Virus record (IMG/VR): IMGVR_UViG_2663763181_000001
Length of the DNA stretch: 64,000 nucleotides
Direction: 5' to 3' (one strand)
Source of the DNA: an uncultured virus (IMG/VR IMGVR_UViG_2663763181_000001)
Taxonomy: Duplodnaviria; Heunggongvirae; Uroviricota; Caudoviricetes
Shown: positions 10,517 through 44,599 of the stretch, one piece after another
Layout: each line of letters begins with the position of its first letter
How positions within the stretch are numbered: position 1 is the first letter of the stretch
Notes under the pieces: model-generated
What the model saw: the letters and a program-made list of their open reading frames with translations, nothing else
Told to the model about the DNA's origin: nothing
Databases searched by the model: none
Position numbers and translations under genes: made by a program

Positions 10517-13500
10517 TTAAGCAGCTAGATTAATATTATTCTCTTGCTCAAATTCATCAATCTTCTTAATAATTTCAGCAGACTTGTTATATGGCATAAC
10601 AATCTCATCAAACTCATTTACTTCTGAACCCCAGAATTTGAGCATGATATTCTTAATCTGAGGTTTATCCACGCCGTCGCCATTGAATACATACTTGCTA
10701 CGTTCAGTTCTGACATATAGTTGGTACTTAGCAAGCTGCTCATCAATACGTAGTTTTCTAGGAGGCATTGCGATATCACGAATTTCTGAAAAGAGGTCTT
10801 CAACACTTGTAAGGTGCGTAAAGTCTAATTCTCGTGTTATTGGAACATCATTAGAGCCTGCATGTTTTTCAATAATGATGATGCGAGTTGAAACGGCGGT
10901 ACCAGCATTTTTAAAGGTTGATTGAGGTAACCAGATTTCAGCTGTCAGAATTGCACCAGGTGTGCTTTCAATAAATTCGTCCACTTTAGAATCCATTGAA
11001 CCACGTGGTACCAAGGCCACAATCCGACCACCATCATAAAGATGACCAAAAGCCTTCTTGATATGTTGAATTGCCAAAGTGCCAGCATGACCAAATGGCG
11101 GATTCATCACAATCGCATGGTACTTATTCAATGATTCTAAAGATTCGAATGTATCAACAATTACTTTAGCACCTGTATTTGCCATTTGAGCACGACTAGC
11201 TAAAGACTCAGTCGGTTCAATCATTGTCAACTCTACATCCTGCGGAACAAAACGACCAATAGCTCCATCACCAGCACTAGGCTCAAGCACAGAATCGCCA
11301 GTGTGTACCCCTGCCCATTCAATCATTTTGAATCCTAGAGGTTCAGGCGTTGCATACCATTCCTTACCTTCGCGGTTATTACGACTTTCAGAACGTTTGC
11401 CTTTGGCATAGTAGAATGTTAGTGCTTGATCAAATGGGGTTAACTTAGCAATACGGGCATTTTCTTCATCATATGCTTTACCGCCAATACCATCATTTAG
11501 ACTTGGCTCTTCATATTTAGCTTCTTCATAAGCCTGAATTAACGCTTCTTTGATACTTACTACAGCATCAGCACCTTTTGCAAAGTTATCTACTGTTTCT
11601 GCGCGTCCAGCAATCGTGTCTGCAAATGCAGCCCGTTCCCATGCAGTACCAGTAGTCAAGTATCTCTGAATAGCATTTGATGCTTGTCCGGTTCGATAGA
11701 TACGCCCTTCCGTCTGTCTCAACTTGGCTGGCTTTGTTGGTTGACCAATATTAATGAGTACTCGCTGGTGTTTACCAGTTGTATCATGCAAGCTAATCCC
11801 AGTAGAACCAGCATCTGACTGCAGAATGAGAATATCGTGCCCGCTATCATCAGTATTAAATAACGCTACATTAGTTTCACGTTGTTGCTTTGAAAGACGG
11901 CCATTAAATAAAAGAGCATTAGGAAATGCATTCTTTAAAGTTTCAACAGGTGAATCATAATCAAGATTGAGATTTACTAGATCCGGTCTATTTTCTTTGA
12001 ATGCATTATATTCAAGCTCAATATCTTCTCTAAGTGGGCTTTCATATTTTTCGATATCAAGCTTACTAATCAAGAAAGGTGCAAAACCACCGCCCTCGTT
12101 ATAGTCATGAAAAATTACTACTTTACGACCTAATGCTAAGTGCTTTTTCACCATATCAACACAAGCTTCAGCTTTAATAGCTTCTAACAAACGGCGTCTT
12201 GCTAAGTAATCAAAGCGTTTTGCAATAATTTCGTATATTTTTTTAAATCGGTTGCCAGTAAATAGCCGATCATATTCTTGCATAGATGCATGACGTCCCC
12301 AGCCTGTTGTTGGTTTACCAGTCTGAGCAGCCCATTCTTCAAAAGTTCTTGTTTTGTGCCCTTCTATTTCTTTATAACCATTGCGAAGATAAGTTAAACC
12401 TTCATCAATAAGTTCACCAACACGAGAGCCAATTAGAATGAATTTACGATCATAGTCAAAATTTACTTCTAAATCCCGCCCAGACATAGCACCAGTGTTT
12501 TTAAGATTTTCAGCGAACTGTCTTTCAAGTACTCCTGTATCTACCTTAGCTTCAGGTCGGGTCAACTTACCATATCGCTTTCGATATCCAAGATTTCCCA
12601 TATAGAAGTGCTCTCGAGCCTTACTAAAGCCTTCAGCTAAATTACCTTGGTCATCAACAGATACTGAAGGAGACATATAATCAAATAAATAGCCTTCCGC
12701 CCAATCAAGTGAAAAGTGATAACTAAATGGCGTAGCAGATAAGAAAACAACTTTGACCTTACTTTTCTGGTGTTTCCAATTCAAATTCCAGATCTTTCGT
12801 TGTTCATTTCGAAGGATCTGCATTTTGTTATAAGCACTTAGGTATTGTTCTGTTTCTTTACCATCTTCATCGAGCTCTTCAATTGGCATCTGATCAGCAA
12901 ATTTATCTTCAAACCATTCACTAAAACCATGCAAATGCCCGGTTAATGCTCTTAGTTTGTTTAATGCTGCAGTTGCTTTACCATCGGATGATTGCGATAG
13001 AGTATGTGCCTCATCAATTAATATCAGGTCCCAATGTTTGTGAACTAAACTTTTATTTTGTCCAAAATTAGCAAAGGTTGTGACCACGACTGTGTGTTCA
13101 TTACCGCCGTTATCTTTAATACTTTTTAATTTGTAAGCTTTGATATTCAACGGACTTGAGCTTTTTACAAAGTCATTTGCAATCTTATCATTCAAGGTAA
13201 CAATCAAAATATTCTTGAGACCAGCATTAATAAAACGCTTTGCCACTCCAAGCCCAGTAAAGGTTTTACCTGTACCAGTGCCGTTAGTAAAAAGAATACC
13301 CTTCTTATTTTCCTCAATTAACCGCTTTTCAGTTTTTAAAACATCACCACGTTGTGCCAGTTGCAGATATGGCAAAGCTGCGTCAATATTTGAAGCATCG
13401 CTCCAAATTGTTTCTACATTATCTGCTTTTAATTGAGCTTCAAGCTTTTCATCTATGGCAGCTCTAACTGATTTAGCAGATTGTACAATTGATCGATCTC

Positions 13501-14347
13501 TTGCTCGTTTAAGAGATGATCTCTTACCAGATAGTTCACTGCTTCCGCTGCTGTTAATCCGGTTAGCACTGGTTCCACTATCTCCATTTGAAGATTCATT
13601 TCTAGGATTTCGGCCGCCAAGTAAACTTGCATCATCACTTTTTGGTAAGCCAGTATTACTGTCTCTGAGTACCCCAACTTCTCCATCATTTCTGACTGCT
13701 TCTGAAGCCTCAAGTTCATCTTTTCCTGATCCAGTTGTAGAAACAATTGGTCCTCTGGATCTGAGACGAAATTCGCCAACTGATTCCACATCTGAATTGG
13801 TATTTGATACATGTAAGAATAATCCTTTTACAAGTTGCTGATCTTCTGAAAGAAGAGAGTCTGGAATAGCTTTAAGATGTTTTGAGCGTACAAGAATTTC
13901 ACCCTGATAATAAAAGGCATAGGGGTCAAACTCTTTAGCTTTGGTTAATTTGATGCCTTTAAGACCAATAACCTGTAATGTTTTATTCTTTTTAGTGGTG
14001 TATGGCTTCAGCTCTTTATCGCAAGCAAAAAGACTGACAATAGTCTCTAGCTGTTCAATAACATTTCTGGAACTGTTATTAAGGTGTTGGATAACTGATT
14101 CATCAATGTTTTTGATAGCCTCGTTATATAAGACTTCAATAACTTCATCCAATTTTGGAAAGTCACTTTCTTGACGGGCAAAAGCTAAAGCTTGCTTTGC
14201 TACAGACAAGTTAAGTTCTATTTGCTTATGGATTATAAGAAGGAAAAATCGAGCAATATTGCTCTGATAATGCATGAAATCAATCATGTAATAAATCGCA
14301 ACCAATACTGTGTCTTTAGTGATTGGTTTGAGCTTTAAAATGGACAT
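10517..14347 (-). CDS. DarB-like polyvalent protein: SF2 helicase plus C-terminal N6-adenine DNA methyltransferase
   Basis: GTGTGKT, DEAH, SAT, QTEGRIYR helicase motifs; LEPSAGDG and NPPFG MTase motifs. Confidence 0.85.
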   Translation of the reverse strand: MSILKLKPITKDTVLVAIYYMIDFMHYQSNIARFFLLIIHKQIELNLSVAKQALAFARQESDFPKLDEVIEVLYNEAIKNIDESVIQHLNNSSRNVIEQLETIVSLFACDKELKPYTTKKNKTLQVIGLKGIKLTKAKEFDPYAFYYQGEILVRSKHLKAIPDSLLSEDQQLVKGLFLHVSNTNSDVESVGEFRLRSRGPIVSTTGSGKDELEASEAVRNDGEVGVLRDSNTGLPKSDDASLLGGRNPRNESSNGDSGTSANRINSSGSSELSGKRSSLKRARDRSIVQSAKSVRAAIDEKLEAQLKADNVETIWSDASNIDAALPYLQLAQRGDVLKTEKRLIEENKKGILFTNGTGTGKTFTGLGVAKRFINAGLKNILIVTLNDKIANDFVKSSSPLNIKAYKLKSIKDNGGNEHTVVVTTFANFGQNKSLVHKHWDLILIDEAHTLSQSSDGKATAALNKLRALTGHLHGFSEWFEDKFADQMPIEELDEDGKETEQYLSAYNKMQILRNEQRKIWNLNWKHQKSKVKVVFLSATPFSYHFSLDWAEGYLFDYMSPSVSVDDQGNLAEGFSKAREHFYMGNLGYRKRYGKLTRPEAKVDTGVLERQFAENLKNTGAMSGRDLEVNFDYDRKFILIGSRVGELIDEGLTYLRNGYKEIEGHKTRTFEEWAAQTGKPTTGWGRHASMQEYDRLFTGNRFKKIYEIIAKRFDYLARRRLLEAIKAEACVDMVKKHLALGRKVVIFHDYNEGGGFAPFLISKLDIEKYESPLREDIELEYNAFKENRPDLVNLNLDYDSPVETLKNAFPNALLFNGRLSKQQRETNVALFNTDDSGHDILILQSDAGSTGISLHDTTGKHQRVLINIGQPTKPAKLRQTEGRIYRTGQASNAIQRYLTTGTAWERAAFADTIAGRAETVDNFAKGADAVVSIKEALIQAYEEAKYEEPSLNDGIGGKAYDEENARIAKLTPFDQALTFYYAKGKRSESRNNREGKEWYATPEPLGFKMIEWAGVHTGDSVLEPSAGDGAIGRFVPQDVELTMIEPTESLASRAQMANTGAKVIVDTFESLESLNKYHAIVMNPPFGHAGTLAIQHIKKAFGHLYDGGRIVALVPRGSMDSKVDEFIESTPGAILTAEIWLPQSTFKNAGTAVSTRIIIIEKHAGSNDVPITRELDFTHLTSVEDLFSEIRDIAMPPRKLRIDEQLAKYQLYVRTERSKYVFNGDGVDKPQIKNIMLKFWGSEVNEFDEIVMPYNKSAEIIKKIDEFEQENNINLAA
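13453..13812 (-). CDS. Nested same-strand, alternative-frame gene inside the DarB-like gene (119 aa)
   Basis: AAGGA SD 10 nt before ATG; protein-like helical composition while the host frame is low-complexity. Confidence 0.55.
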   Translation of the reverse strand: MYQIPIQMWNQLANFVSDPEDQLFLQLDQEKMNLRLQKQSEMMEKLGYSETVILAYQKVMMQVYLAAEILEMNLQMEIVEPVLTGLTAAEAVNYLVRDHLLNEQEIDQLYNLLNQLELP

Positions 14348-14422
14348 ATATCCCTCAACATAGGAACTTTACATTCCTATGTTGAATGATCGTAAGTATC
14401 TAATTTTTAGTAGGTTCCAGAT

Positions 14423-15934
14423 CTAAACATCTAATTCTTCGAAAAGAATGTCATTAATTTTGTTCCCTTCATGATTTTCTTTGTCATTACTTTGATCAAT
14501 TTTAGCTTTCAAAGCACTGTGGAAACGTTCAGCTCCCTCTTTCGTTAATCGAATTATTTTAGGGCTACTTGAACTGCTGGAATCAACCAATGAATCGTAC
14601 ATTTGCACACTAATGAAATCATCACCAAGCACTTGTTGTGCATATTGGAGAGCATCTTTTACACTTACTGGTTCAGGTTCACCAAACAATCCTACATTGC
14701 TGCTATCTAAAGCTTGTTTCTCTGCAAATTCAGCTAAAGCTTTAAATAACATACTCATTTTTTTTGAACTGCGGCTATTCTTGGCGAGAAATACGGCGAG
14801 CTCAGCAACACCTTCTCCTAGATCCTCAAAAAGCCCTTGCTGCTTTACAAACTCAACAATATCTTGATCATTTTGCTTTGCAGATAAAATTGTATTTGCT
14901 GCATCAATAATTGCATTAGCAACACGTTGATCAATGGCTTGCTCCATTCCATCAACGATTTGATCTGATATATCTTGAACATTTCCACGACTTATGGCTT
15001 GCGCTTCAATAAATTTAGGGGCAGCAACACCAAGCGCATTAAGCATATTTTGAAGATCTGGTTTTGTATGATCAGCCATCATTTCTAGCAAACGATCATC
15101 ATTGTACGCTTTACTAAAAATTGCGGCCTTGATTCTGTTTATCAGTGCTTGTGTTGGTTTTTTATCTTTCGTTGTGTACTGGGCAGCTTCTGTATCACCT
15201 AATTTACTTAAAAAACCTTGAATAAACTTTTGATTACTTACTGCTAATAAATCGCCATCTTCACTCGGATTAAAAAGTGCCAGTAAATTCTCATCTAAAC
15301 GTTTAGCATCAGCTTTAGCACGTTCAGTTGCTGTAAAAGACAACTTATCATCTTGGTTAGCATCTATTGCAAATTGAGCTCTATCAATCTCGGTTGTACG
15401 AATACGTATCAAAATCGGTTGAGCTATTGCTTGGACCTGCTCACTACTAAAGCCAAAGTAATCAGCTTCATCAATCAACCATTGTTTATACTCATCTGCG
15501 GAACCGCGATCATAGGCAAGCTTGATTGCCATTGTTCGGCCATTTCCTGATTCAACCACTAAATCATCACCAGTAATCGGTGCTCCCGTATCTGCACGAC
15601 CTGAGCGGCCTAGGCTTTCGGGATCTAAATCATTAGCAGTTTTCTGTACCCATGCTTGTGAGGATTCACGACTACGATCTCGTGGCTGCAATTCTTGCGG
15701 ATAATTAGGGTTTTCCGCACCAGTTGCTGTATGAGATGCAATGACTTGATCAATATCAACTAAAGCGAATACAGTAGAAATCTTTTGTCCTTTGGCTGTT
15801 TTCACATTATTAGTTCTACCCTTCAAAAGCCCAGTGAAGGGCTGTTTAGGTTTAAAGAAGCTGATCATTTGATCAATTACAACTAATGGATTTTTAGCAA
15901 TATCTTGAGTAGAAATTAGATTTAATGTTGTCAT
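14423..15934 (-). CDS. DdrB-like ParB-domain protein
   Basis: LQPRDRSR, GAPI...VVESGNGR signature of the ddrB-like ParB family; coupled to the darA-like gene. Confidence 0.8.
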   Translation of the reverse strand: MTTLNLISTQDIAKNPLVVIDQMISFFKPKQPFTGLLKGRTNNVKTAKGQKISTVFALVDIDQVIASHTATGAENPNYPQELQPRDRSRESSQAWVQKTANDLDPESLGRSGRADTGAPITGDDLVVESGNGRTMAIKLAYDRGSADEYKQWLIDEADYFGFSSEQVQAIAQPILIRIRTTEIDRAQFAIDANQDDKLSFTATERAKADAKRLDENLLALFNPSEDGDLLAVSNQKFIQGFLSKLGDTEAAQYTTKDKKPTQALINRIKAAIFSKAYNDDRLLEMMADHTKPDLQNMLNALGVAAPKFIEAQAISRGNVQDISDQIVDGMEQAIDQRVANAIIDAANTILSAKQNDQDIVEFVKQQGLFEDLGEGVAELAVFLAKNSRSSKKMSMLFKALAEFAEKQALDSSNVGLFGEPEPVSVKDALQYAQQVLGDDFISVQMYDSLVDSSSSSSPKIIRLTKEGAERFHSALKAKIDQSNDKENHEGNKINDILFEELDV

Positions 15935-17886
15935 TAGATATTCTCCGCTTCCATTTTTTGTACTTGATTCAAGAGCTCTGTCACCGCTGGAATAAGAAGT
16001 GGATCATTTAAGTCTTTTTCTGCTTCATCTCGAATTTGCTCTAATAACTCAAGATTAACTTTAACCTGCCCTTCAATTACTGAACGGTAAAGTTGATTAC
16101 CTTCATCATTTGTCGTACTAGGCTGAAGATCTTCAACTTCTGTCGGAGCATTTAGTTCTTTAAATTCTTCATTATCTGAATTTTGGGCTGGCTCTTTATT
16201 TCTGAGGCGATCCGCTAAATGTTCATCTGCCCATGCTCTTGAATATTCATAAAATGCTGTTAAATATTCTGGTGAACCTTCGGCACCATTCCAGTTTTTT
16301 AAGAATTCACCACGGCGATCTGAAACCCAAGCCATAAAGTCTATGTTGTTAGAATCTTCAGGATTTTCCAAAGTGTCTAACCATGCTTGCATCATTTTGT
16401 TTTCAGCTATACCAGCTGTACGTGCTGCTAATACTTCTTCATCTCTTTTTTGTTTAGCTTCATTTTCGGCATCAATAAGTTTTTTTGCTTCTAATTCTGC
16501 TTGCTGTTGAGCCAAAGCCTGGTCATCTAGATCAGAAATCCATTCACGTGCCCAAACTACTGCATCAGAACCCCCCTCTAGAGCCTTATTGATACGTTCA
16601 AAGAATGCTTGGTAACGTAAACCATCTTCACCTGCCCATTCAGGATCAGCATTTAAACGCTTTAAGTCGGCTTTTAAACGTTCGGCTTCTTCATCAGAAA
16701 TACTATCTGGTAACTCATTATCGAGACTATTCTCTTTAATGATTACTTCATTTTCTTCAGATTGCTTGGTTAACAATGTATTTTGCAACTGATCCAATTC
16801 ATTTAATAAATTGGAAATTTCTACACTTAAAGAATTTAATTGACTTTGTTTTTGCTCGAGACGTAGTTCAGCATCTGCTAAAGCCTTGGCCTTTTCTGCT
16901 TTTTTAGATTGTAACCGCTTAAAACGATTACTATTTTGGTTAATCAACTTCATAATTCGACCAGCGAGAACTGGAATTGATATTCCTTCTCCCTGATTAG
17001 GCTGAATTGCAGCCGTAATATCCCGATTGTTCATTAAAATCTTCCATGAAATTAATGCATCTGCTGGACTAATTTTTTTTGATAATCGATCTGGCTTATG
17101 AAAAAGGATTGTGAAGTTTTGACCATCATCAAAATCATAAGTAAGAGCAATTTGAAGGACTTTTTTATGCTTAAAGGGCTTACTTTCCGTAACGTTAACG
17201 ATTTTGACGCCAGTTTTTGAAAACTGATCCATAGAGTGATGCAAAATTGCAGATAGCTGCTCTAAATGCTGGTAATCAACGATAATAGAGTCATAATGCG
17301 CTTCTTCTACGCCTAGACTAGATAAAAGCGTAGGTAACCCATCAAATTTACTTAATAATTGGCTGTGATCATCATTTCGTTGCATATCTAATAACAACTT
17401 AGAAGTATCACCCTCATGAGAAATTAAATTGATTCCATCCCATTCAGGTTTTTCAGCTGCGACAACATTTTGTAATTGTTCTAGTTGCCATCTTTGAATC
17501 GGTTTTGAACCCGTCAAATTAAATTGTTGTGAAGATAAATGGCGCTTAAGTCCAAATTGATTTGTTTCAATAACATCTGTAACACAAGCATCAAACATTC
17601 GGCCAAATTGCAGTATCGCTAAATCAGCTGCATGCTGGTCATCGATAGCGCCTAATACCGCAACAGAATCAAACGCATCTATCCCACCCTTTTTACCTTT
17701 TAAATTTACAACACGCCAGAAATCATTTTCCGTGTAATCTTCAGTGACTAAAGCATTAATTTGACGGTAATCACCCTTAATAAACCCAATTGAACAAGCA
17801 CCACTATTCACCATAGAGTCAAAACCATGTACTAATCGGCTTTGATGTGGTGCGTGTGTTTGAATGAAAATTGATTTAACACTCAC
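15934..17886 (-). CDS. DarA-like (defence against restriction A) protein
   Basis: PFK...DGQNFTILFHKPD...SWK...RDIT...P..G...R.MKLI..NS.RF DarA N-terminal-type domain plus coiled coil; GTG start with GAGGA RBS. Confidence 0.75.
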   Translation of the reverse strand: MSVKSIFIQTHAPHQSRLVHGFDSMVNSGACSIGFIKGDYRQINALVTEDYTENDFWRVVNLKGKKGGIDAFDSVAVLGAIDDQHAADLAILQFGRMFDACVTDVIETNQFGLKRHLSSQQFNLTGSKPIQRWQLEQLQNVVAAEKPEWDGINLISHEGDTSKLLLDMQRNDDHSQLLSKFDGLPTLLSSLGVEEAHYDSIIVDYQHLEQLSAILHHSMDQFSKTGVKIVNVTESKPFKHKKVLQIALTYDFDDGQNFTILFHKPDRLSKKISPADALISWKILMNNRDITAAIQPNQGEGISIPVLAGRIMKLINQNSNRFKRLQSKKAEKAKALADAELRLEQKQSQLNSLSVEISNLLNELDQLQNTLLTKQSEENEVIIKENSLDNELPDSISDEEAERLKADLKRLNADPEWAGEDGLRYQAFFERINKALEGGSDAVVWAREWISDLDDQALAQQQAELEAKKLIDAENEAKQKRDEEVLAARTAGIAENKMMQAWLDTLENPEDSNNIDFMAWVSDRRGEFLKNWNGAEGSPEYLTAFYEYSRAWADEHLADRLRNKEPAQNSDNEEFKELNAPTEVEDLQPSTTNDEGNQLYRSVIEGQVKVNLELLEQIRDEAEKDLNDPLLIPAVTELLNQVQKMEAENI

Positions 17887-17959: not shown

Positions 17960-18613
17960 TTATTTTAAGTTGGGAAACATTTTGATGAAATTTAAAGTAA
18001 CAATGGCATGTGCTTTATTAGAGGCATCAAGGGGCAAATTGCCTGCTTGAAGTGAAACTAGATGCTCAATTTCAAATTGGTTCTGATTTCTTGCAGCTTT
18101 ATCAAAAGCATATATTTTTAATCTCATTAAGTATTCAATTGGTGGAGACTGAGTACCATCTTTATTAAACATTATTTCTTTTATAGCTTTAGCACTATTC
18201 GCAATAGCTGCTTCTTTAGTCTCAATAAATGAAATGTTCAACTCATTTGAAGCATTACCAGTTACATGGTTGAGTTGAAAATGCCCCACATGCACTGCAT
18301 CGGTTTGGGCATCTAGTAGTGATACATCTACATTATTGGCTAACCAAGCAACTTTGTTTGAAGGATCAAAAATTGGAATATTTGCTTGAGCAATTTTACT
18401 GTTTGCACGGTACGGGCGAATTTCAATTCCAAAATGGGCCGCTGAAAGTGTCCCTAATGCGTAAAGTTCCTGATAATGTGAAACAGCTCGATCAACAGTT
18501 AGACCAGACCACAAGACAGGATTCTTAGCAAAACGTTCTTTAAACGGATTTAAAACGTTTCCCAAACTGTTATTTATAGTTTTATTCTGTGTTTCGTATT
18601 CAAAAAAAGCCAT
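17960..18613 (-). CDS. Putative tail tube-like/baseplate protein
   Basis: Tube-fold-like pattern (ELNISFIET); coupled to the portal gene. Confidence 0.45.
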   Translation of the reverse strand: MAFFEYETQNKTINNSLGNVLNPFKERFAKNPVLWSGLTVDRAVSHYQELYALGTLSAAHFGIEIRPYRANSKIAQANIPIFDPSNKVAWLANNVDVSLLDAQTDAVHVGHFQLNHVTGNASNELNISFIETKEAAIANSAKAIKEIMFNKDGTQSPPIEYLMRLKIYAFDKAARNQNQFEIEHLVSLQAGNLPLDASNKAHAIVTLNFIKMFPNLK

Positions 18614-20148
18614 TATTCTTCATCCTCTGGAAATTTACGGCTTTTAGCAATACTTTCAGCTAACGTTAATGCTTCCTCATATTTCATACCTGTATCGCGC
18701 TCAAGAATGTACGCCATAATATCTACATCTAAATTTGATTCTTTCAATGACGCGATTACTTGTGTTTTAAGTAATGTTGTATTCATTCTTGATTGAGCAT
18801 TGTTGATTTCTTCTGTAGCTGCTGCAGTTTGGTTTGAATAATATTCAACTTGCCAAGGGTAATCTTCAGGCTCAAATTGTTCGTTGTAAGCAAAACCCCA
18901 ATCCAAATGAAGAATTTGATTAATCCCTTCGGAAGCTGCTGTTCGAATGTCTTGTGACCTACGCATGATTTGTGCAGAAGTATGGAATGCTCCACCTTCT
19001 CCAATACCGCCAGTTAACATATCAGCCCAACCAACCATGCTTGGATCTAGACCAATTCCGCCCATCAGCAAACGGACATTAATCATGAATTGTTCAATAT
19101 TAATAGGTGAGCTTCGTTGATTCTTGATATCACCTACTGGATTTAGAACTTGTTTTTCATCAAATACCGGAAGCATGTGAAAAGCAGTATTCCAGACTGC
19201 TTCACCACCTGATAAAGCATCACGGACATAAGCCTCATGATTTTTCAGTAAACCTTCTAAACCACGGATATAGGCTTGACGTTGGGCTGGCGGCATTCCT
19301 GACATATTTACTGTCAAGAACATCTGATTTACGGTATCTGCGATTTGCTGGCTATTCATAGATGCCAAAGCGAGGATTACATCATCATAAATATCTTCAA
19401 TCTCATAAAGAAATGAGCCGCCTAAATGCGCGGGTAAGATTGGTAGCTCATCTGGATCATCACCCTCCAACATTTTCGTGACAAGTCCAGTTTCAACAAG
19501 CTCATATTGAGCAATATTGCTCATACGGGGCATTTTGAAACGTACCATTTGAATAGTATTCAGCTTGGTAATAGTTTTTTGCCAATTGCGAGGATCTAAA
19601 CAAAAAAAGGCGACAGTCTTACTGCCTTGTTCGAAAGGCTGTATTAATGGCGGATATGTATACTCATTACATACGAGGTCAATTACACCTTTATCTTTTT
19701 TCCCATAAATACGTGCATAGGAATCACCGAAAGAAATAGCATCTCGGGCAAGTTTGCTTAAATACTTATTGATAAGCTTTTCCATCTTTACACGGCGCTC
19801 ATCTAGTTGTTTTTTTAGTTTTTCAGCTGCTGGTCCACTGGCCTTTTTCAAGCGTTCGGCAGGTGTAATAAAGACTTGTTGGCCGCTATAAGAATCTCCG
19901 CCTAATGCGGCAGAAACATGAATCCCCATACCCTCTGCGATAGGTGCAAAGCGTAACATTCTCTCCCATTTTGTAAGAATTTCTTTTCTAGTACGTTTTT
20001 TATTGGCTTTGGTTTGGTTAGTCCCAAGTGAAAACGGAGCCATAGTTTCATATAGCTGTGCTGTTGCATCCTGATTAGACGTATCGAATTGCTGATCATA
20101 TGAATTAACATTTTCACCGAGTAACAACGATAAGAACCGAGAAGACAT
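18613..20148 (-). CDS. Portal protein (P1 Prt-like)
   Basis: 511 aa; WERML..PIAE.M.IHVS.ALG, ARDAISFGDSYAR, GLDPSM.G patterns; late motif upstream. Confidence 0.65.
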   Translation of the reverse strand: MSSRFLSLLLGENVNSYDQQFDTSNQDATAQLYETMAPFSLGTNQTKANKKRTRKEILTKWERMLRFAPIAEGMGIHVSAALGGDSYSGQQVFITPAERLKKASGPAAEKLKKQLDERRVKMEKLINKYLSKLARDAISFGDSYARIYGKKDKGVIDLVCNEYTYPPLIQPFEQGSKTVAFFCLDPRNWQKTITKLNTIQMVRFKMPRMSNIAQYELVETGLVTKMLEGDDPDELPILPAHLGGSFLYEIEDIYDDVILALASMNSQQIADTVNQMFLTVNMSGMPPAQRQAYIRGLEGLLKNHEAYVRDALSGGEAVWNTAFHMLPVFDEKQVLNPVGDIKNQRSSPINIEQFMINVRLLMGGIGLDPSMVGWADMLTGGIGEGGAFHTSAQIMRRSQDIRTAASEGINQILHLDWGFAYNEQFEPEDYPWQVEYYSNQTAAATEEINNAQSRMNTTLLKTQVIASLKESNLDVDIMAYILERDTGMKYEEALTLAESIAKSRKFPEDEE

Positions 20149-20212
20149 AACGAAGCCAAAATACCTAAATAATTATGTATTTTGAAGGCTGCTATTTTTT
20201 TACTTTTAGATG

Positions 20213-20234
20213 GGTTCCAAAGTGAATTGGAACC
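20213..20234. promoter_or_regulatory. Back-to-back late motifs forming the palindrome GGTTCCAA-N6-TTGGAACC
   Basis: Lies between the divergent portal gene and the 20308 gene; both arms have a -10-like hexamer at N29. Confidence 0.65.
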
Positions 20235-20307
20235 AAACAGATTTAATAAAAATCCAGCATGCAATTCTATCTGAACAAACTTACTTTACTGTTTAGAGGA
20301 TTCGCTA

Positions 20308-33555: not shown

Positions 33556-33617
33556 TAGTATTTCCTTAATTAAATGGATTATAGGTAAAGCCAAAAAATG
33601 ACCTTACCTATGAGTAA

Positions 33618-34385
33618 TTAGTAAATACCTAAGCGTTTACCTTTTTTGAATGAACGTAAACGCTTGTTGATTGCATTCGCAGTAAAAGCATGAAGTCGAG
33701 CTTTTTTCATACCAGCTTTTTGTGCTGCAGTTAAACGGACCTTTTGACCAGGTAATCGTTTATTCACAACGGTTTTGATACCTTGACGAATAGCCAGCAC
33801 ACCACGGTAGTGAATTTTTCGCCCATTTACTTTCCGTTGGCTAAATGCTCCATTTCGAGCTTTAATTTTTTTAGCCATTGAATCGAAACCTTCTTCAGTT
33901 TCATCTGCTTCACCGAAAATAAACTCTCGAACGAGTTCTTCAAGTTCTGGACCATCGTCTGGCATATTAGCAAGAACTGTATTGGCTGCTGCTTCTAACG
34001 CCGCATCAGCAACTTCTGTATCATCACTAAAGATCTCTTCAATATCAGAAGCGTCAACGCCAAATGTTAAGAAAGCATCGGAAAGAGACGCCATCAAAGC
34101 GTTTTCATAGATACCTTCTTCATCATCTGCACCATCTAATGCATCGACAATTAATGCGTCTAAATGATCAACGCCCAGTTCACCTTCTTCAAGCTTACCT
34201 TCACTGATTGTATCTACCGTATCGGATAGAATGTTCAGAGCAATTTGTCGTACTTGTTCAATCACAGATTGCTGTTCTCGATCAGTACTTGAAACCTTAC
34301 TTACAACGGTAGAAATATTCTCCGCTGCTGAATCAAAAGCACGTAAAGTTAATGGTTTTTCAGTAGTGGGTCCGAATGGATTCAT
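33618..34385 (-). CDS. Putative prohead core/scaffold-like protein
   Basis: Highly acidic body, very basic C-terminus, two FDS motifs. Confidence 0.45.
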   Translation of the reverse strand: MNPFGPTTEKPLTLRAFDSAAENISTVVSKVSSTDREQQSVIEQVRQIALNILSDTVDTISEGKLEEGELGVDHLDALIVDALDGADDEEGIYENALMASLSDAFLTFGVDASDIEEIFSDDTEVADAALEAAANTVLANMPDDGPELEELVREFIFGEADETEEGFDSMAKKIKARNGAFSQRKVNGRKIHYRGVLAIRQGIKTVVNKRLPGQKVRLTAAQKAGMKKARLHAFTANAINKRLRSFKKGKRLGIY

Positions 34386-34403: not shown

Positions 34404-35699
34404 TTATTTAACTAAAACGTCGTCATCAAAAATTGCGGCACGAGTTGTACCAACAACTCCATGGGCTAAATAGAGTCGTACACGCTCATATGGATAGTCT
34501 TTGTCAGGTATTAAACTGAACTCAAAAGGTTTACCCCCTAGATCTTCAGCCGGTTGTAACCAACCGGTTGTCTCACTAGAAGCGCCCTCTAAAAACTCTT
34601 GAATGTCATCACCAGCTTTTTTGATATAGTCCGGTGTAGCTTGGAACATATAAGTCCGCAGGATCTCGATACATTTATTCGTAACCCGAGCCGAAATCTC
34701 CGCGGCGGGAACTAAACGCAAAGCACTATTTTTGCTTTGGTATTGGGTAAGCACATCACTTAATACAAATAATGTAGTTTCAAACTTAACTGGACGAACT
34801 ACATTTACTTTAGCCTTAGCCAACATTTCTTGAGTCTGTTCATCTTCAAGATCAATATTCGGCATCTGGCTTAAGTTTTTTGCTGTAAAGGGATAATCTT
34901 TCCAAGCTACTGCATTTTTTAACGGCGCAAAGCCTTGTTTATTTAACTTTGCATTACGTAATAATTTATCGCCGATGTAATGGCCCAAATAATAAGCTGG
35001 TACCTTACGACCTCTTAGCGTGACAGCATCAGATGGGCGGCAAAGGTTCGGGCTCCAAATGAATTGAACAAACTGTGATTGAGCATCTACACTTGTCGCA
35101 AATTGAGCTGCTTGCTCAGCTGTAAAAGTTGGGTTGATTTCAGCATCCAAAGGAATACGTAATTTTGTAGCTGCACGTTGAGCCGCAACATAAATTGGTA
35201 AATCATGAGGATTTGGTAAAGTCAGATATGCTGGTGTGCTTAATTGGCTTGTCAGAATTTTATATAGTTCATCTGGATTAAATGACGGTAACGATTCGTC
35301 TTCCAATGCCAACGTTTTTGAAGCACGACCTAAGCTATTTGATTCGTTATAAGCATTAGATTTGAGAATTGCTTTTAACGCATCAATACCTAACGATAAA
35401 TCAAATCGCTCGAAATATTCTTTCGCATCAGCTACAGCAACAATCGAAGCGGAATTTTCAATGTCTCCATCTACTAATCCCTGAACAGTAACAATTTGGT
35501 CACCAGTTACCGCATCACGTATTTCTAAACGCATAGAAATATCTGCAGGTCCACGTGGGCTTGAAACTTTCGCAAAAAATGCCACATTGATTTCTACACT
35601 AGCAAGATAACTGTATGTATCAAATTCTAATTTGAGTGATGGACTGTCCCCTGCTACAAGGGATAGCTCACCTGTACTTGATAGAGCAAGTATATTCAT
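34404..35699 (-). CDS. Tail sheath-like protein
   Basis: C-terminal LAKAKVNVV..DVLT...SALRLV...FL...GWL pattern of contractile sheaths. Confidence 0.55.
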   Translation of the reverse strand: MNILALSSTGELSLVAGDSPSLKLEFDTYSYLASVEINVAFFAKVSSPRGPADISMRLEIRDAVTGDQIVTVQGLVDGDIENSASIVAVADAKEYFERFDLSLGIDALKAILKSNAYNESNSLGRASKTLALEDESLPSFNPDELYKILTSQLSTPAYLTLPNPHDLPIYVAAQRAATKLRIPLDAEINPTFTAEQAAQFATSVDAQSQFVQFIWSPNLCRPSDAVTLRGRKVPAYYLGHYIGDKLLRNAKLNKQGFAPLKNAVAWKDYPFTAKNLSQMPNIDLEDEQTQEMLAKAKVNVVRPVKFETTLFVLSDVLTQYQSKNSALRLVPAAEISARVTNKCIEILRTYMFQATPDYIKKAGDDIQEFLEGASSETTGWLQPAEDLGGKPFEFSLIPDKDYPYERVRLYLAHGVVGTTRAAIFDDDVLVK

Positions 35700-42607: not shown

Positions 42608-44599
42608 CTAATCATTTTCTTTTTCAGCTGCTTCTCTTAAAGCACTGAATCTTGATTTACGTTCAGCTTGTTCACGGCCTTCCGGTGTATCGTCAGTGAC
42701 ATTTACAGTTTCGTAAGCTTCAGTGTAGTGAACGTTTTCTAAGAATAAGAAAGCAAAAGCATCACCAATATCCGGTGATTTAATTCCCATACGTTTCATT
42801 TCGTCTTTGCTCAAGATTTTATAACGAGCAAAGTCATCGAACCGGTATGGAACGTGGATTAATTGGTCTTTAATTTTAACATTGTGTTTCTTCGTTTTTA
42901 TTTTAAAACGTCCATTTGCGATTGCTCGAGCTAAGCCCACATAAGCTAATGAACGTTTATTCGTAAACTCTTTTCTATTGTCATTACTAAAACATTGTGA
43001 GCCCCAATAAACAGGAACGTAGAAAATACCTTGCTTTTTAAGATACTGGCCTAAACCTTTACCTGCCCCGTTGTCATCTACAACCAAGTTAGCATTTGGG
43101 TACTGTAAAAGTAGCTCATTAATCTTTGCAAATAGTTCTAAGATATCATCTCTGTTTTTGCATAATGGAATATCTACAACTTCTACACGGCGTGCACGCT
43201 CCCCCCATTGCGATTCGCCCCAAACTTTAGATACAACAATTACTGAATCGTCACGACCAACACCACCACCAACGTCAACCGTAATGACATAACCGAATTG
43301 ATGGTCATCAAAAATACTCGCGCCAACATACATTTCTTCTGTTTGACGTTTGGTAATTAAGAACTCATCCGATAAGTCTGGGAATTCACCTAGAACACGG
43401 ATCTTGTACTGAGCGTCTTCACGGCTTCCATACTTTTGCCGTTGTTCTTCTAAAGATTGCTTACTAACTAATGGTGACTCTTCCCCGTTAAATGTGAGAG
43501 CAATCCAAACACCACCAGCTCGATGACTTAACTTGTGATGAGTCTCATAGAACATACCCGCATTACGGGTAGGTTGCGACGTCATTACGGCACGGTTGTC
43601 TTCGTGAGTTAATGCACCAAACGCTACATCCAGTACAGCATCATCTACACCGCTGGCCTCATCGACCCAGACCATGTAGTTATCGCCGTGGTTACCAGCC
43701 AAGTTTGTAGGTTGATGTTTTGGTGCTGTCTTAGCAAAGACATACCATTTTTCTTTGTAGCCTTTAATGTAAACGAGTTCAGACTGGTACCCGACATAAT
43801 CAGCAAGCCAAGCCAAAGGCCCTTGCTTCAATCGTGCTAGATTGATACTGATTTCTTTCCAGACTTGTTTCTTTAACTGCCCGATCTGGGGGGCAGTAAA
43901 CATCATGATTGATTCATCAAAAAACAAGAGATGCCATAAGGCAACAATACCGGCACTGGCCGTTTTACCAGTGTTATGTAGTACTAAGTCATCTTCACCT
44001 AAGAAAAATGGATCTGGATCGAGTACAAAACCGTAATATTTACCTTCACCCAGCTCGGCAACGGATGTGATTTTTAAAGGCTCATGATCCCCATCAACAA
44101 GCCTATATGATGCAAACTGTTCTCTATTTTTTGGCTTTAGGTTCATGTATTGAGAAACAAGTAATTCAATCTTGTCGCCCTTTGACCAGCCGTTACCATC
44201 GTATAAAGAGATTAAGCAAAGGATATGCGATTTATTGAATGTATGAGCTTTGCCATTCTCATATTCAAACCGGTACATATCCTGATAACCAGTTACTGTT
44301 TTAATTACATCTAGTTCAGTCTTACCATCTGCAGCAAGGATCTTGTGATTTAGGTTAATGCGCTCAACTGGGATAAATTCCCCATTGGCTAATTTGATTA
44401 AAGTCCCTTTTCCAAAACAACCGTGACCTGAAGCTACGGATGTACGACTACCATCAAATGCAATAGATTCAAATAGTAATTCTTGTTGCCATGTGGGTTC
44501 GACACCTAATGCTTCTACGGCGAAAGCATAGATGTCGTATCGATAACGCTCACAAAGTTCCCACCATTCGGGAATTTCTTTTAATGGTGCCAAAGCCAT
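42608..44599 (-). CDS. Terminase large subunit (P1 PacB-like) containing a mini-intein
   Basis: Walker A SGHG|TGKT split by the intein; VDEASG Walker B; RVLGEFP, VDVGGG, SPDIGDA nuclease motifs. Confidence 0.92.
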   Translation of the reverse strand: MALAPLKEIPEWWELCERYRYDIYAFAVEALGVEPTWQQELLFESIAFDGSRTSVASGHGCFGKGTLIKLANGEFIPVERINLNHKILAADGKTELDVIKTVTGYQDMYRFEYENGKAHTFNKSHILCLISLYDGNGWSKGDKIELLVSQYMNLKPKNREQFASYRLVDGDHEPLKITSVAELGEGKYYGFVLDPDPFFLGEDDLVLHNTGKTASAGIVALWHLLFFDESIMMFTAPQIGQLKKQVWKEISINLARLKQGPLAWLADYVGYQSELVYIKGYKEKWYVFAKTAPKHQPTNLAGNHGDNYMVWVDEASGVDDAVLDVAFGALTHEDNRAVMTSQPTRNAGMFYETHHKLSHRAGGVWIALTFNGEESPLVSKQSLEEQRQKYGSREDAQYKIRVLGEFPDLSDEFLITKRQTEEMYVGASIFDDHQFGYVITVDVGGGVGRDDSVIVVSKVWGESQWGERARRVEVVDIPLCKNRDDILELFAKINELLLQYPNANLVVDDNGAGKGLGQYLKKQGIFYVPVYWGSQCFSNDNRKEFTNKRSLAYVGLARAIANGRFKIKTKKHNVKIKDQLIHVPYRFDDFARYKILSKDEMKRMGIKSPDIGDAFAFLFLENVHYTEAYETVNVTDDTPEGREQAERKSRFSALREAAEKEND
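43973..44419 (-). mobile_element. Mini-intein (149 aa, Cys61-Asn209, no homing endonuclease)
   Basis: CFGKGT start, block B TFNKSH, terminal VLHN followed by Thr. Confidence 0.9.

Follow-up and report, generated by a model that had tools for sequence, protein, structure and literature searches.

The 64,000-nucleotide (nt) stretch of DNA analysed here (hereafter the window), which is the IMG/VR record IMGVR_UViG_2663763181_000001 of an uncultured virus of the Caudoviricetes, carries a real, ancient and overlooked overprinted gene that encodes a new family of small helical proteins. The gene product, P0001, has 119 amino acids (aa), and its gene lies wholly within the gene of a 1276-aa helicase-methyltransferase, P0002, which is called the host gene below. 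That the overlap is a real gene is strongly supported by selection specific to its frame, by deep conservation, by a conserved ATG with a Shine-Dalgarno (SD) sequence in front of it, and by a confidently predicted fold. It is highly probable that the stretch is genuinely dual-coding, the same 360 bases specifying a disordered linker of P0002 in frame 0 and an independent 119-aa protein in the +1 frame.

The internal open reading frame (ORF) starts 535 nt into the host gene, which places it in the +1 frame of the same strand (Table 1). Its ATG is preceded by the sequence gtAAAAGGAttattcttacATG, and the SD-like motif listed in Table 1 forms a duplex of -5.4 kcal/mol with the anti-SD sequence. 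The encoded protein contains 21 leucine, 14 glutamine, 13 glutamate, 9 methionine, 8 asparagine and 8 valine residues, and has an isoelectric point (pI) of 4.2 and a net charge of -12. The host frame across the overlap, on the other hand, is rich in serine, glycine, arginine, aspartate and asparagine, with a grand average of hydropathy (GRAVY) of -0.87, and the helicase module of the host protein begins directly after it. An earlier note on this DNA had proposed a same-strand, alternate-frame ORF with an ATG and an AAAAGGA SD sequence nested in a DarB-like gene, with a product rich in L, E, Q and M, coinciding with the S/G/R/D low-complexity linker of the host frame. The ORF list and the sequence bear out the first of these points, the composition given above the second, and the translation of the host frame the third.

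Table 1. Positions of the nested gene, its host gene and associated features in the window
Feature	Position	Strand	Remarks
Overprinted gene	13453..13812	-	119 codons + TAG; +1 frame of the host gene; encodes the small protein P0001
SD-like AAAAGGA	13823..13829	-	10 nt upstream of the internal ATG (13810-13812)
Host gene, 1276-aa helicase-methyltransferase P0002	10517..14347	-	Frame open through the overlap
S/G/R/D/N-rich low-complexity linker of the host frame	13448..13813	-	~Residues 179-300; carries the overlap
SF2/SNF2-type helicase module of the host protein	11498..13369	-	~Residues 327-950; Pfam; invariant motifs, e.g. TNGTGTGKT
N6-adenine methyltransferase module of the host protein	10838..11392	-	~Residues 986-1170; NPPF motif; Pfam MTS
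Antisense 128-aa ORF over the overlap DNA	13455..13841	+	By-product of composition, not a gene
A5 run CCAAAAAGT	13639..13643	-	Point of switch between host frame and small frame in several database proteins

Decisive evidence comes from the comparison of copies of the locus. A total of 44 loci with a protein identity of 94-100% came out of a scan of IMG/VR, and the overlap region is present in 42 of them; the ATG is kept and an internal stop is absent in all 42, although in one (L043) the stop codon of the small ORF is altered, so that it reads on for a few codons more. Stops in the small frame of close homologues had been named in the earlier note as the observation that would speak against the gene, and the gene is not refuted on this count. 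The polymorphism set comprised 41 gene copies including that of the window, after L030 (truncated), L037 and L044 (partial, with the region missing) and L041 (frameshifted downstream) were dropped. Inside the ORF, variable sites fall on host codon positions 1, 2 and 3 in the numbers 31, 13 and 5, whereas outside it the corresponding numbers are 22, 12 and 65 upstream and 78, 49 and 432 downstream (chi-square test, inside versus outside, p=7.6e-22). As host codon position 1 corresponds to the third position of +1-frame codons, the selected frame switches within the 120-nt intervals that hold the two ends of the ORF. Furthermore, synonymous changes in the small frame make up 34 of 52 variants versus 20.9% expected (p=5e-12), whereas in the host frame they make up only 6 of the 52 versus 26.1% expected.

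The same pattern is seen in a second lineage, the L107 group of five sequences, whose helicase region is 47-48% identical to that of the window. Here the variable sites at host positions 1, 2 and 3 number 15, 1 and 2 inside the ORF and 20, 16 and 145 outside it (p=1.3e-13), and 14 of 19 variants leave the small protein unchanged. Two further whole-locus comparisons (L118 with L119, and L060 with L061) were spoiled by insertions or deletions (indels) and were left out. Thus purifying selection acts on the frame of the small protein in two lineages, which is the frame-specific conservation for which the earlier note had suggested looking.

The small protein is also conserved far beyond these close copies. 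Relatives of 119 aa with 59-65% identity came up in a word-based protein search, and nr lists one close family member under Acinetobacter baumannii as a hypothetical protein. Among 401 genomes at family rank, searched in six frames, there were six true loci in three genera, each nested in the +1 frame with an ATG and an SD-like sequence; weak profile matches in six genomes of the genus g13 (E about 1e-4) turned out to be SmpB and were rejected. When a profile built from eight family sequences was compared with 1.84 billion representative proteins, clustered at 50% identity, 247 clusters matched at E<=1e-3 and 60 at E<=1e-10; these proteins are mostly of 115-135 aa and are matched over their full length from residue 1. 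Megablast gave no matches beyond close kin, whereas tblastn and the profile do find the family, and while the small protein retains 30-65% identity, the host-frame peptide over the same stretch is not conserved. No family for the small protein was found in Pfam, PHROGs, PADLOC or NCBIfam, and no Pfam family is common to more than one of 122 members. No fused in-frame forms were found among longer proteins at E<=1e-5, which is weak evidence.

A few members of the family are longer than the rest. P0143, P0139, P0081, P0049 and P0031 (220-439 aa) have long C-terminal extensions without a Pfam domain; P0143 is AT-rich, and its tail, rich in lysine and glutamate, is unlikely to be a chance run-on. 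When used as a query, P0143 gave no matches in viral or metagenome contigs, and P0081 likewise gave no matches. The 288-aa P0094 has as its relatives ordinary nested genes of 121 aa.

The nested arrangement, too, is widespread. Using tblastn with family members, we found eight phage records, which represent six cultured phages, i.e. Pseudomonas phage Skulduggery, Klebsiella phage vB_KpnP_ZX1, Serratia phage Parlo, Vibrio phages D274 and 1.232.O, and Ruegeria phage 45A6. In all six the match lies in the +1 frame inside a giant coding sequence annotated as 'DarB-like', 'PLxRFG' or 'hypothetical', and ends where the helicase homology starts; no separate feature for the nested gene is annotated in any of the six genomes. 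In Skulduggery, a phage of Pseudomonas fluorescens, the nested ORF occupies record positions 33577-33966. We also collected 36 divergent loci from IMG/VR through the helicase (33-48% identity) and other loci through the small protein itself. Overall, a member of the small protein family is present in 61 of 61 diverse loci, and in 58 of these, the six cultured phages included, it lies immediately before the helicase domain, nested in the same +1 frame of a host-frame run that spans 300 aa or more. The carriers span phages of Gamma- and Alphaproteobacteria as well as many metagenomic viruses. The nested arrangement is thus ancient and nearly universal in this helicase-methyltransferase clade of phage virion 'polyvalent' proteins.

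The start signals are conserved along with the protein. Met1 is 97% conserved in the family alignment, and 37 of 38 diverse loci have a methionine where the alignment places the start. An SD-like sequence (<= -4 kcal/mol) lies upstream in 30 of the 38, compared with 22.6% of control positions (Mann-Whitney p=5e-12). The four clearest exceptions, L148-L150 and L132, have A-rich leaders with no SD-like sequence before the nested ATG, and their hosts may, to judge from these leaders, use SD-independent initiation.

Structure prediction points in the same direction. AlphaFold2 with eight sequences gave a poor model, with a predicted local distance difference test (pLDDT) score of 59, while with 122 sequences it gave a pLDDT of 92.9 and a predicted template modelling (pTM) score of 0.84 for a protein of seven helices with no disordered segment. 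Using the good model, Foldseek found no match in the PDB at E<=0.001 (best 2.2), and the best of 48,161 chains compared by VIA-align, YpgQ, reached a Z-score of 5.0 (85 residues aligned, root-mean-square deviation 3.6), which is below the meaningful level for helical bundles. A fold search of BFVD made with the poor model only gave a best E of 1.2, the ESM Atlas yielded no usable match, and the best hit of a sequence profile search of the PDB (E 0.007, a designed TPR protein) was taken as noise. The predicted all-helical fold is therefore apparently unmatched, although missing matches do not prove a new fold.

Both frames of the overlap are maintained, and this bears on the alternatives to a dual-coding stretch. 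It could be argued that only the small frame is real, the 1276-aa ORF being in fact an N-terminal piece followed by a helicase-methyltransferase that restarts downstream, with the linker left untranslated. The linker peptide is indeed barely conserved: it is gapped and variable in an alignment of 10 relatives in which the following helicase is well conserved, and of 15 pairs between genera, 14 have the higher identity in the small frame and one is tied, while the alignment score favours the small frame in all 15. In addition, the giant gene to which P0002 belongs is already in several ORFs in this prophage, and two loci possess the small gene but no surrounding host frame. However, if the small protein is held fixed and its codons are chosen at random among synonyms, the host frame is open with a probability of 1e-5, and yet it is open over the overlap in 42 of the 42 close copies and in 58 of the 61 diverse loci. 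Since such openness would arise by chance about once in 100,000, reading through the overlap has been selected and both frames are kept, and we regard an untranslated linker as very unlikely. The host frame merely stays open and hydrophilic; because the linker peptide is hardly conserved, openness and hydrophilicity are all that this frame needs, and that leaves room for a second gene.

Still less likely is a single trans-frame product, in which a +1 slip at the A5 run would give the N-terminus of the host protein a tail made of the last 62 residues of the small frame. Four database proteins (P0004, P0008, P0009 and P0010) are exactly such chimeras joined at this run. Gene callers, however, need an indel in the DNA to produce such proteins, and P0004 switches frame three times, as is typical of homopolymer errors, so that the four chimeras are most likely homopolymer sequencing errors. 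Moreover, the N-terminal half of the small protein is under the same selection as the rest, its Met1 and SD sequence are conserved, the lysine codon of the A-run is not conserved in the family, and there are already indications that the run is limited to the Acinetobacter-type lineage.

We see next to no probability in a chance ORF, i.e. one that is left open because a low-complexity linker poor in hydrophobic residues lacks the codon combinations that give stops in the +1 frame, and that is never translated. Such openness is not vanishingly rare: when the host protein was fixed and its synonymous codons were resampled, 0.3% of 200,000 trials left the +1 frame open, and in the window the antisense frame is free of stops as well. 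Shuffling the host codons lowers the figure to 0.01%, and the longest stop-free run of the +1 frame in the host gene, 124 codons, is found here, the next having 68. Composition thus favours such an ORF, yet not enough to explain it. An ORF open by chance, furthermore, would not be expected to show the excess of +1-frame synonymous substitutions in two lineages, the family of profile clusters conserved where the host peptide is not, the conserved start and SD sequence, or the confident model. The antisense ORF, which we rejected as a gene, shows what a true chance ORF looks like: it has stops in 6 of the 41 close copies, the freely varying sites fall on its codon position 2, and it has no Pfam match. 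Equally improbable is a constraint on the nucleotides or the RNA (a structure, packaging or regulatory signal) without a second protein, for while synonymous sites in the host frame vary unusually little (5 of about 118), the sites that vary freely follow a strict three-base periodicity in the +1 frame, the amino-acid sequence outlasts the similarity of the DNA, and a confident fold driven by coevolution is not expected of an RNA element.

Some observations must be set against the dual-coding reading, or temper the evidence for it. No sigma-70-like promoter was found upstream on the minus strand, so that expression would depend on internal initiation on a long late mRNA. The stretch is present in contigs from RNA libraries (three runs in three studies), but a contig is no proof of transcription, strand or translation, and no reads were found over the stretch in one raw-read RNA run. 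In addition, the sequences inside each polymorphism set are kin; the p-values given above therefore overstate independence, and the independent replicates are the two lineages.

The host protein P0002 has the Pfam domains ResIII (residues 341-454), Helicase_C (809-887) and MTS (1026-1111), that is, a helicase at residues ~340-900 followed by an N6-adenine methyltransferase at ~998-1165, and invariant helicase motifs such as TNGTGTGKT are present in two alignments of its relatives. It matches phrog_10691 and phrog_5143 of PHROGs, and also phrog_10089, 'DarB-like', with an E of 1e-6 over the methyltransferase part only. Like DarB of phage P1, it combines an EcoKI/TaqI-type N6-adenine methyltransferase and an SF2/SNF2 helicase in one polypeptide, the two methyltransferases being 24% identical over 201 aa (BLASTP, E 1e-6). 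The order of the modules differs, as DarB of P1 (L143:10469-17236) has its methyltransferase at residues 91-290 and its helicase at 833-1533. The label 'DarB-like' that annotations give to such proteins rests mainly on the methylase.

The two same-strand genes upstream of the host gene match N-terminal parts of the same giant phage protein families as the host protein (phrog_5143 and others). The giant gene (10517-17886, minus strand) is split in the window into at least three ORFs, of 650, 503 and 1276 aa, while in its relatives in Skulduggery, ZX1, Parlo, both Vibrio phages and Ruegeria 45A6 it is a single ORF of ~3,160-3,910 codons; in the split copy of the window the small gene remains on the helicase-methylase piece. 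Co-occurrence of the small gene with the clade in which the helicase precedes the methylase is strict in the phage collection. P0002 is matched with a coverage of at least 71% in 8 records, exactly the 8 that hold the small protein family, and none of the other 187 records that match P0002 had a family match with four family queries at the E cut-offs used; among the 22 listed of those 187, mostly the methylase alone was matched.

Three of the diverse loci are not nested. L152 is a high-GC contig from a metagenome-assembled genome (MAG) of the Phycisphaeraceae, and encodes a free-standing 362-aa protein in which the family domain occupies residues 1-114. Within L152:6001-13085 this gene is followed directly by a type I restriction-modification operon made up of hsdM, hsdS, a macro-domain gene and an hsdR-like gene. 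The 240-aa tail that follows the family domain in this protein has no Pfam match. A second free-standing copy, of 123 aa (L158:9563-9934), lies at the end of its contig after an integrase, a D5-type primase-helicase and a Sel1-repeat/trypsin-like protein, a neighbourhood that looks like a small integrative element. These two copies indicate that the small protein can work without the overlap. In the third locus, on a low-coverage metagenome contig (L147:1782-2376), the host ORF and the small domain end together while the small frame continues, which is probably due to an indel, or else is a real rearrangement of the frames. In genome samples drawn from wider taxa, the family was found in 1 of the 400 scored genomes of the class (the near-twin of the window only), in 1 of 401 of the phylum of the MAG and in 2 of 401 of the window's phylum.

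As to function, the likeliest reading of these associations is that the small protein has a role connected with the helicase-methylase or with type I restriction. In the mechanism that we propose, the acidic seven-helix protein would be translated from its own ATG and SD sequence on the mRNA of the host gene, and would bind an HsdM-type methylase/SF2-helicase machine. This could be the helicase-methyltransferase of the phage itself, in which case the small protein would be a partner in cis, made just before the helicase domain is translated, and would act as a chaperone, a packaging aid or a brake. Alternatively, it could inhibit or regulate a type I restriction enzyme of the bacterial host, and so be an anti-restriction factor; the restriction-modification neighbourhood of one free-standing copy, the mobile-element setting of the other and the acidity of the protein fit this version. 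That the protein binds such a machine, in either version, is a possibility that falls somewhat short of an even chance. A chaperone or inhibitor, which the earlier note had supposed, is consistent with the strict co-occurrence and with the free-standing homologue beside hsdM-hsdS-hsdR. Two points count against these functional proposals. They draw on co-occurrence and on a single restriction-modification neighbourhood. Moreover, the net charge of the 122 family members has a median of -5.4 and is negative in 105, so that acidity is common but, with a pI above 7 in 17 of the 122, not universal, which weakens a reading of the protein as a DNA mimic.

We also put forward a wider and rather doubtful proposal, in which the family, hitherto undescribed and with a new helical fold, would be a dedicated binder of HsdM-type methylase/SF2-helicase machines, hidden in the linker of an injected anti-restriction polyprotein. 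The small gene would be the older partner, and the giant ORFs would have been fused from flanking genes by reading through it in another frame, so that the linker would be the overprinted frame. Its greater age is suggested by the contrast between a folded, conserved small protein and a disordered, unconserved linker, and by the existence of free-standing copies.

An embedded +1 gene within a phage gene is an arrangement of a known kind, of which Rz1 inside Rz of phage lambda is the textbook example in the accessible text of two papers (PMC9409062, PMC9144972). As far as that text describes the pair, the nested gene resembles Rz1: each is complete, begins at a start of its own and lies in frame +1 of a larger phage gene on the same strand, with both products kept. 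It differs in that its product is an unrelated protein without a role in lysis, predicted to be a soluble helical domain of ~120 aa rather than a lipoprotein, in that the host frame here encodes a disordered linker within the helicase-methylase, a giant virion protein, and in that the two products are here only putative partners.

The earlier note had also pointed to two genes of phage P1 as parallels, and both of these analogies are weak. Like the small gene, iddB is a small ORF annotated inside a gene of the Dar anti-restriction system, ddrB; however, it lies on the strand opposite to ddrB and not in darB (L143:26577-26975), and its product gave an hhalign probability of only 0.06 with the small protein family. 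Ulx is described, in the portion of the source available, as a 17-kDa head protein that aids the localisation of DarB (PMC9024508), and being small and encoded beside a DarB-type helicase-methylase it is a plausible functional analogue, as a packaging accessory. Nevertheless, ulx is a separate, non-overlapping gene downstream of darB, and the hhalign probability of homology is 0.1 over 11 columns. No member of the family was found in bases 1-40000 of P1, darB included.

Ocr and ArdA are small acidic anti-restriction proteins. The window copy of the small protein resembles them in size and acidity and in its ties to anti-type-I-restriction genes and mobile elements. It differs from them in that the 122 members have no Pfam match, no fold match was found, and 17 of them are basic; searches of Pfam, PADLOC, NCBIfam and PHROGs did not place the small protein in the Ocr or ArdA families by sequence.

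No description of the nested gene was found in the literature text available to the search, which covered main texts and not supplements. The accessible part of a survey of polyvalent proteins covers the methyltransferase-helicase dyad, and the words 'overlapping' and 'frameshift' are absent from it (PMC5512222). The accessible text of the Parlo announcement mentions only the giant gene (PMC6606913), and so does that of the JC1 and Lastavirus papers.

Long out-of-frame nested genes are rarely found in double-stranded DNA phages, because gene callers forbid them, and the present one has unusually clean evolutionary proof and is old. Little is understood of the giant 'DarB-like' polyvalent virion proteins, to which a protein family is now added, and the nested gene provides a handle on their assembly, control or anti-restriction use. 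If the wider proposal made above is true, the family would be a new class of inhibitor or regulator of type I restriction. In addition, a folded protein encoded over a disordered linker makes a test case for the evolution of dual coding.

The window carries the morphogenesis region of a myovirus-type prophage, with genes for the portal (18613-20148), the sheath (34404-35699), the terminase (42608-44599) and a 3192-aa tail protein; the host gene lies in the head/tail module, next to the portal. A further ORF of 120 aa with a TTG start (19902-20264, minus strand) overlaps the 5' end of the portal gene in another frame.

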